64,000 nt of DNA, taken from NCBI RefSeq assembly GCF_003334405.1, contig NZ_QOWM01000008.1. One strand, written 5' to 3'. The notes beneath the pieces are model-generated. The model was not told the DNA's origin. It did no database searches and was given only the letters and a program-made list of their open reading frames with translations. The DNA is from Escherichia coli. GTDB taxonomy: Bacteria > Pseudomonadota > Gammaproteobacteria > Enterobacterales > Enterobacteriaceae. Position numbers and translations under genes: made by a program. Every line of letters begins with the position of its first letter. The first letter of the stretch is position 1. Positions 55,335-57,230 of this stretch are shown here, piece by piece.

Positions 55335-57230
55335 ATGGCAGGGAAGTTTCGCTGCATTTTGCTGTTGATAGCAGGGCTGTTTGTATCATCTCTAAGTTAT
55401 GCAGAAAACACGGAGATCCCTTCTTATGAAGAAGGGATCTCGCTCTTTGATGTTGAAGCCACTCTGCAACCAGATGGGGTGCTCGACATCAAAGAAAATA
55501 TTCATTTTCAGGCGCGAAATCAGCAGATTAAGCACGGCTTTTATCGTGATTTACCACGACTATGGATGCAGCCTGATGGGGACGCTGCACTGCTGAACTA
55601 TCATATTGTTGGCGTCACCCGTGATGGTATTCCTGAACCCTAGCATCTTGACTGGCATATCGGGTTAATGAGTATTGTCGTGGGCGATAAACAACGTTTC
55701 TTGCCTCAAGGCGACTATCATTATCAAATTCATTATCAGGTTAAAAATGCTTTCCTGCGTGAGGGGGATTCTGATCTGCTAATCTGGAACGTGACCGGTA
55801 ACCACTGGCCGTTTGAAATTTATAAGACCCGTTTTTCTCTCCAGTTCTCTAATATTGCGGGTAATCCATTTAGCGAAATCGATCTCTTTACCGGAGAAGA
55901 GGGCGACACATATCGTAATGGCCGCATCCTTGAGGACGGAAGAATTGAATCCCGCGATCCGTTTTATCGTGAAGATTTCACGGTCCTCTACCGCTGGCCT
56001 CACGCTTTACTTAGCAATGCCTCGGCTCCGCAAACGACGAATATTTTCAGCCATCTTCTTTTACCCTCCACGTCATCGTTGTTAATTTGGTTTCCGTGTC
56101 TGTTCCTGGTTTGTGGATGGTTATATCTCTGGAAGCGCAGGCCGCAATTTACGCCGGTAGATGTGATTGAAACCGATGTCATTCCGCCAGATTACACGCC
56201 CGGCATGTTACGTCTCGATGCGAAGCTAGTTTACGACGATAAAGGTTTTTGTGCCGATATCGTAAATCTGATTGTGAAAGGAAAAATTCATCTGGAAGAT
56301 CAGTCTGACAAGAACCAGCAAATCCTGATTCGTGTTAATGAAGGCGCGACCAGAAATAATGCGGTATTACTGCCCGCAGAGCAGTTATTACTGGAAGCGT
56401 TATTTCGTAAAGGCGATAAGGTCGTTCTTACGGGGAGACGCAACAGAGTCTTACGCAGGGCATTTTTACGGATGCAGAAATTTTATCTGCCGCGTAAAAA
56501 GTCTTCGTTTTACCGGTCTGATACTTTTTTGCAATGGGGTGGACTGGCAATATTGGCGGTCATTCTTTACGGTAACTTGAGTCCTGTAGGCTGGGCAGGA
56601 ATGAGTCTGGTGGGCGATATGTTTATTATGATCTGCTGGATTATTCCTTTTTTATTTTGTTCCCTTGAGCTTTTGTTTGCCCGCGATGATGACAAGCCTT
56701 GCGTTAATCGTGTAATCATCACTTTGTTTTTACCACTGATTTGTTCAGGCGTGGCCTTCTATTCTCTCTACATCAATGTCGGAGATGTATTCTTTTACTG
56801 GTATATGCCAGCGGGTTATTTTACCGCTGTTTGCCTGACCGGTTATCTCACTGGCATGGGGTATATTTTTCTGCCAAAGTTTACCCAAACTGGACAGCAA
56901 CGTTATGCCCACGGTGAAGCTATCGTTAACTATCTTGCGCGTAAAGAGGCAGCAACACACAGTGGACGTCGGCGGAAAGGGGAAACACGGAAACTGGATT
57001 ACGCGTTGCTAGGTTGGGCTATATCGGCAAATTTGGGGAGGGAATGGGCGTTACGCATTGCCCCTTCGCTTTCTTCGGCGATTCGCGCTCCAGAGATTGC
57101 CCGTAACGGCGTTTTATTCTCATTACAGACGCACCTAAGTTGCGGGGCCAATACCAGTTTGTTGGGGCGAAGTTATTCCGGTGGTGGTGCTGGCGGCGGC
57201 GCGGGTGGCGGAGGCGGTGGTGGCTGGTAA
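55335..57230 (+). pseudogene. yciQ: yciQ (DUF2207-type membrane protein) interrupted by one in-frame TAG at 55641-55643
   Basis: Track ORFs 55335..55643 and 55668..57230 are in the same frame with a single TAG between them; read through they give 631 codons, the length I recall for K-12 YciQ; signal peptide at N-terminus, poly-Gly C-terminus. Confidence 0.65.

Follow-up and report, generated by a model that had tools for sequence, protein, structure and literature searches.

Proteins of the DUF2207 family, such as SMU.243 of S. mutans, possess two Pfam domains (PF09972 and PF20990) and are built from a signal or β-sandwich domain at the N-terminus, transmembrane helices and, at the C-terminus, a stretch rich in Gly and Ser. 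Literature on the family was found to comprise one functional study, performed on S. mutans (PMC10457818), in which the phenotypes of SMU.243 concern tolerance of acid and H2O2 as well as biofilm, and which does not include an analysis of the tail. Phase-variable repeats, as found at contingency loci, consist of a long perfect tandem run, typically of at least five to six units in the case of tri- to hexanucleotides. GlyGly-CTERM/rhombosortase signals consist of a GG motif, then a transmembrane helix, then a cluster of basic residues at the C-terminus. Furthermore, a low-complexity segment situated after the TPM domain has been described in a comparative study of the PSP system (PMC11237479).

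The locus compared here to these systems is yciQ of E. coli, which is contained in a window of 64 kb (the window being the whole stretch of 64,000 nucleotides that was analysed). The following features were identified at this locus:

55335..57230, + strand: coding frame of yciQ, membrane protein of the DUF2207 family, 631 codons and a stop (ORF list; RefSeq annotation of matches of 99.9% identity; Pfam)
55641..55643, + strand: amber TAG at codon 103 of yciQ (TGG/Trp103 in all best database matches)
57177..57227, + strand: tail-coding tract, SGGGAGGGAGGGGGGGW, residues 615-631 (sequence and frame; unique in the window)
57179..57187, + strand: left copy of the 9-nt direct repeat CGGTGGTGG (repeat search)
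57189..57200 (approximate), + strand: extra 12 nt, one Gly-Gly-Gly-Ala unit, of 17-residue relative to 13-residue alleles (placement ambiguous in the alignment)
57192..57227, + strand: core family motif GGG-A-GGGGGGG-W, the last 12 residues (profile of 108 relatives anchored at the C-terminus, alignments, AlphaFold2)
57215..57223, + strand: right copy of CGGTGGTGG, at a 36-nt spacing from the left copy
57228..57230, + strand: stop codon TAA of yciQ, in frame with the ORF at 55335..57230

Both Pfam domains of the family were identified in YciQ, with DUF2207 (PF09972) covering residues 35-175 (i-Evalue 2.1e-21) and DUF2207_C (PF20990) covering residues 284-535 (i-Evalue 5.6e-09), and the arrangement of β-sandwich domain, transmembrane helices and Gly/Ser-rich C-terminus is also shared. 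A scan of YciQ against NCBIfam identified no family. Dissimilarities to the family are that the K-12-type allele is longer by one GGGA unit, with Ala and not Ser at position -13 (counted from the C-terminus), and that yciQ is often lost or inactivated in E. coli. Gene neighbourhood also differs. In distant members of the family, LemA (PF04011) is encoded directly upstream (3445-3999 of L022, 3427-3999 of L024 and 559-1101 of L030), with the DUF2207 gene starting 1-2 nt later or overlapping, which suggests that the two form a two-gene unit in these relatives. This is a frequent association among distant DUF2207 members and not a defining requirement, and it is not present at yciQ, whose neighbours are yciO and rluB, as they are for the enterobacterial orthologues. 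YciQ resembles GlyGly-CTERM signals in having a Gly-containing motif at the extreme C-terminus of an envelope protein; however, it ends in ...GGGGGGGW (G7-W) with no helix thereafter.

Positions 57177-57227 read TCC (GGT)3 GCT (GGC)3 GCG GGT GGC GGA GGC GGT GGT GGC TGG, and these last 17 codons are translated as SGGGAGGGAGGGGGGGW, containing 13 Gly (6 GGT, 6 GGC, 1 GGA), 2 Ala, 1 Ser and 1 Trp. The initial annotation had reported a run of Gly codons at the 3' end of yciQ, and both the run and the gene to which it was assigned were confirmed, the latter by the frame of the ORF at 55335..57230 and the DUF2207 annotation of RefSeq. Its placing of the tract at 57181-57230 contained minor errors, as the start was 4 nt late (the true start being 57177) and the end took in the TAA. 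Its wording of a GGY homopolymer was nearly right as regards GGY and can be applied loosely at the protein level only, since no perfect codon repeat in the DNA exceeds 3 units, the longest being (GGT)3 and (GGC)3, and the tract DNA is thus not homopolymeric. With TRF, nothing beyond a weak array of period 15 was identified (score 47, 2.3 copies, 84% match). The pattern GGNGGNGGNGSNGGNGGNGG, allowing at most one mismatch, was found to have seven overlapping matches in the 64-kb window, all within the tract, with 0.01 expected from shuffles.

Relatives of YciQ were searched for with HMMER among 1.84 billion cluster representatives (50% identity), resulting in 4368 sequences, the best 150 of which were examined. 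Among these best 150, 124 were full length (at least 550 residues), with 110 of the 124 ending in Trp and 113 possessing at least 8 Gly within the last 20 residues. A residue profile was then obtained from 108 full-length relatives anchored at the C-terminus. Trp was present at -1 in 108/108, with Gly at -2, -4, -5, -7, -8, -10, -11 and -12 (each in at least 105 of the 108), and variability was mostly confined to -3, where Gly, Arg or Ser occurs, and -9, where Gly, Ser, Ala or Arg occurs. Ser was identified at -13 in 101 of the 108 (Ala in 4, as in the allele of the window), preceded by Ser or Phe at -14. The full motif, [S/F]-S-GGG-x-GGGGG-x-G-W-COOH, was present in the same register in 94 of the 108 relatives; it is an empirical feature derived here and has no curated definition. 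These relatives are 21-30% identical to YciQ overall (mean identity within the family being 28%), and the columns of the tail are among the few that are invariant or nearly invariant in alignments of the family.

The last 12 residues of the allele in the window fit the consensus GGGxGGGGGxGW-COOH. The whole motif is matched by the 13-residue tails that certain E. coli alleles possess (described below). The enterobacterial orthologues situated at the yciO-rluB locus (P0001 and P0002) also have the 13-residue form with an exact match to the consensus. This indicates that the K-12-type allele carries its extra GGGA upstream of an intact core, the consequence being Ala instead of Ser at -13. A search of the accessible literature by motif string and by LemA, TPM and glycine-rich topics returned no description of the motif. 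As a feature of a known family, already annotated, the tract is ordinary; from the alignments it would be a local copy of a fixed-length motif that is family-wide, and not a hypermutable repeat. We consider it likely that the tract represents the form taken in E. coli by a C-terminal motif that is conserved in DUF2207 membrane proteins and under selection at the protein level, with length changes that are rare and inherited by lineage.

Codon usage is informative in this regard. In three distant relatives, whose genes range from 40 to 62% in GC content, the Gly codons are mixed (GGA/GGT/GGC/GGG), which together with the conserved register shows that selection acts on the protein. It was considered whether a nucleic-acid element at the 3' end of yciQ (a G-quadruplex, pause site or terminator) might be what is selected, with poly-Gly as its by-product, given that a G-rich strand occurs at the end of the gene and that rluB, the next gene, begins 210 nt downstream. 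This is highly improbable, as the G runs are just 2-3 bases in length, a promoter and terminator scan of 57100-57500 found nothing, the amino-acid register is maintained in spite of differing codons across that range of GC content, and rluB is kept in strains without yciQ. A perfect 12-bp inverted repeat (CAGTGAGTCAGA ... TCTGACTCACTG, 7-nt loop) was observed in the yciQ-rluB spacer at 57359-57389; it has no T-run after it, was not called by the terminator scan, and lies inside the segment that is missing from strains lacking yciQ.

A second possibility is that the tail is a functionless low-complexity spacer, neutral and disordered, whose composition is kept by mutational bias or drift. The tolerance of E. 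coli for several tail lengths and for loss of the whole gene would be compatible with this, as would the prediction of disorder for residues 579-615. Drift, however, would not be expected to resemble the position-specific conservation described above (Ser at -13, variability at -9 and -3 only, Trp in 108/108), seen across relatives of just 22-30% identity, or the mixed codons, and the terminal residues are confidently predicted in two distant relatives. A spacer of this kind thus appears unlikely.

An AlphaFold2 model of E. coli YciQ (70-sequence alignment, pLDDT 83, pTM 0.73) was used to investigate the conformation of the tail. Residues 579-615 were assigned a pLDDT below 50 and are predicted to be disordered, while residues 621-631 were assigned values of 87-95 with a β-strand at 627-630. 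In the AlphaFold2 model of a relative of 22% identity, a linker at 618-632 (pLDDT below 50) was likewise found to precede a terminal strand at 638-641, the final residues being at 94. The combination of a low-confidence linker and a confident terminal strand in two distant relatives favours a flexible tether with a Gly strand capped by Trp, though the confidence given to the Gly run could in part be an effect of the strong alignment signal. Foldseek comparison with the PDB matched the N-terminal β-sandwich only (to N-domains of M1 aminopeptidase/LTA4 hydrolase and to an OST subunit, TM approximately 0.2), and these matches are uninformative for the tail. A sequence search of the PDB with YciQ gave only spurious low-complexity matches (E above 0.03), indicating that there is no solved relative.

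Hydrophobic segments of YciQ were located at residues 241-259, 403-421, 430-448 and 460-478, and hydropathy analysis placed a K/R cluster after the last of these. The tail is probably cytoplasmic, as judged from hydropathy, the K/R cluster and the topology of SMU.243. A fifth transmembrane segment, which a cytoplasmic C-terminus requires, is weakly hydrophobic. The topology stated for S. mutans SMU.243 agrees with a cytoplasmic C-terminus (PMC10457818).

From these features, the motif is proposed to consist of two parts, namely a flexible linker rich in Gly and Ser followed by the [S/F]-S-GGG-x-GGGGG-x-G-W-COOH element of fixed length. The disordered linker would tether the last ten or so residues, and these would form a short β-strand, anchored by the terminal Trp, that folds back onto a membrane-proximal part of the protein, probably at its cytoplasmic side. 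The length changes seen in E. coli (6, 12 or 36 nt) would be rare in-frame events caused by replication slippage, or by deletion between direct repeats that are short and imperfect; they would pass down by lineage while mostly sparing the terminal x-GGGGG-x-G-W core, and would be tolerated chiefly in that half of the tract which adjoins the linker.

The initial annotation had held that the tract is prone to slippage and differs in length between strains, and that an invariant length would speak against this. Seventeen yciQ alleles of E. coli were retrieved and their tails compared, with a DNA alignment being made of 14. The length was not invariant, as tails of 5, 13, 15, 17 and 19 residues were found among E. 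coli complete genomes, thus confirming the claimed difference between strains. All indels in the tail are of 6, 12 or 36 nt and in-frame. The forms identified were:

17 residues, as in the window: K-12, BL21, ST131 and UTI89 (reference form)
19 residues, SGGGSGAGGGAGGGGGGGW: strain 980-2 (+6 nt)
15 residues, SGGGSGAGGGGGGGW: ATCC 25922 and others (-6 nt)
13 residues, SGGGAGGGGGGGW (L005, L020) or SGGAAGGGGGGGW (O157:H7) (-12 nt)
17 residues, rearranged, SGGGSGAGGGAGGGGGW: SCU-113 (+6 nt and -6 nt)
5 residues, SGGGW: TUM11352 (L018) (-36 nt, coinciding exactly with the interval that separates the two CGGTGGTGG copies)

The frequency of these lengths was investigated with a 139-nt query chosen so as to avoid a 2-nt indel of the spacer, with rows taken at even steps through the ranking. 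The total match length of longer queries (450 nt and 720 nt) had been tried as a proxy for tract length and was dropped as misleading, due to the yciQ-rluB spacer having 1-2-nt indels of its own. Of 59 full-coverage rows in the even sample, 46 (approximately 78%) had the 17-residue tail, with 15 and 13 residues occurring in six rows each and the remaining row being that of SCU-113, which is 1 nt shorter as it combines its rearranged 17-residue tail with a 1-nt deletion just past the stop codon. Row 60, of partial coverage, was the allele with the 36-nt deletion. The core was kept in 57 of the 59 evenly sampled genomes. Departures of E. coli from the family consensus were found to be four extra residues in most strains and endings of G5-W and GGG-W in rare strains.

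Identity of at least 99% over the 139-nt tract query was obtained for 1967 genomes, among them every K-12 and BL21-like strain of the sample, which indicates an equal tail length in these, and a further 13 rows of ST131-type or other strains at 95.0-98.6% identity had a tract of the same length as that of the window. The 19-residue allele was found in eight genomes at 100% identity, with several more of equal length. The 36-nt deletion was identified in one genome, whose flanks are identical to those of approximately 568 genomes having the full tract. The 14-allele alignment showed that classes of tail length track the haplotypes of the flanking DNA. The indels are consistent with slippage or with deletion between short direct repeats. 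On these comparisons variation in tail length appears to be rare and lineage-bound; recent changes in particular would be rare, with one clearly recent event having been found, namely the 36-nt deletion in a single genome on a background of approximately 568.

These data also bear on whether the tract could be a hypermutable simple-sequence repeat, in which the GGY run slips often, length varies freely among close strains and YciQ may be tuned or switched as a result. Five length classes exist, the alleles on different flanking haplotypes call for no fewer than 4-5 separate indel events, and one 36-nt deletion is apparently recent, all of which would be in keeping with such a repeat. Nevertheless, frequent slippage is quite unlikely, and the claim of a slippage-prone tract was not upheld: perfect repeats do not exceed 3 units and the TRF array is weak and imperfect, the tract is at least 99% identical in those 1967 genomes, with equal lengths in the sampled K-12, BL21-like and 13 ST131-type or other rows, length classes follow haplotype, and the register of the motif is conserved across phyla. 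As all length changes are in-frame, on/off switching of YciQ would not result from them. The presence of a register-conserved motif throughout the DUF2207 family further argues for selection on length and not for free variation.

Comparison with contingency loci leads in the same direction. The yciQ tract has in common with these a short-period G-rich coding repeat that is polymorphic in length between strains. It differs from them in lacking a long perfect tandem repeat (only (GGT)3 and (GGC)3 being present), in its near-uniformity among close isolates, where a single deletion variant was found, and in offering no switch of frame or promoter spacing, since its indels preserve the frame and fall within the final codons of the gene. 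Changes occur in multiples of 6 nt, rarely and by lineage, and conservation lies at the protein level. Judged by these features, the tail locus of yciQ is not a contingency (phase-variable) repeat.

Framed as a slippage-prone poly-Gly tract, this element matters little, its variation being real yet rare, in-frame, lineage-bound and located in a gene that is often lost, and it serves as a caution that runs of Gly codons are not all mutational hotspots. The point worth keeping is the G-rich, Trp-terminated motif of fixed register, for which a description was not found in the searchable literature. A near-invariant tail of this kind provides a concrete, modestly useful handle on the function of the DUF2207, LemA and TPM systems. 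The tail of YgcG, a TPM-family protein of E. coli MG1655 (ygcG at 3712-4584 of L021), is likewise a Gly/Ser low-complexity segment terminated by W, and thus such tails are common to at least two families of envelope proteins. TPM proteins (E. coli YgcG and the B. subtilis YdjH type, of which YgcG only was examined) are similar to YciQ in their tail; however, their folded domain is unrelated and the register is not that of GGG-x-GGGGG-x-G-W. It is possible, with somewhat less than an even chance in our estimation, that GGGxGGGGGxGW-COOH is a functional module with a variant in TPM proteins (YgcG), acting as a tethered strand or plug that docks at the protein's membrane-proximal face, or as a short linear motif for a common partner such as LemA, whose gene adjoins most of the distant DUF2207 genes, and that its length is essential. 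Were this so, a fixed tail length would be essential to the activity of the widespread DUF2207 envelope proteins.

The state of the gene in E. coli was also examined. The amber codon at position 103 of yciQ places the tail downstream of a premature stop in the strain of the window. It arises from a single base, 55642 being A in the window and G in the best match (L015), and the yciQ of MG1655 has two differences to that of the window, namely the amber base and one synonymous change. No 100% match to the yciQ of the window was present among 5426 complete E. coli genomes. Going by its sequence, the copy in the window would be a strain-specific pseudogene, or would need suppression or reinitiation at ATG 55668.

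Across the species, yciQ was detectable in 3977 of the 5426 complete genomes and absent from approximately 1450 (approximately 27%), which match only from position 57407 of the window onwards. In E. coli W, rluB follows straight after yciO, with 65 unrelated nt (3935-3999 of L001) replacing 55308-57405 of the window. The segment composed of yciQ and approximately 175 nt downstream is thus a presence/absence polymorphism, missing for example in E. coli W and O103:H2. In several other strains yciQ is interrupted by IS elements (ISSen4, ISVsa5, IS1X2 and IS1A, the last in C43(DE3)), in BL21 it is a partial pseudogene, and in O157:H7 its product is shortened to 527 residues. Alleles within E. coli diverge by up to approximately 6% at the DNA level. 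Owing to this gene loss in approximately 27% of genomes, along with IS insertions, truncations and nonsense mutations, selection on the motif may perhaps be relaxed or absent in E. coli in particular. Literature on yciQ was found to be mostly concerned with strain-engineering uses of the locus, which has been employed by engineers as a neutral integration site (PMC11943725). yciQ appears to be dispensable in E. coli. A listing of yciQ as a regulator in one pan-genome paper was considered and found implausible.

Comparison of the window with MG1655 revealed 17 SNPs across two large collinear blocks. The IS5U copy upstream of oppA in MG1655 is missing from the window (31283-31286), and differences in copy or sequence were identified in the ldr/rdl repeats and the tyrT-tyrV/rttR repeats (1-2600, 18670-19050). 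Mutagenesis of K-12 as an origin of the amber codon was rejected, as the 17 SNPs relative to MG1655 have no transition bias and the IS5 copy of MG1655 is absent. The window is indicated by these differences to derive from a close natural relative of K-12 and not from MG1655 itself.
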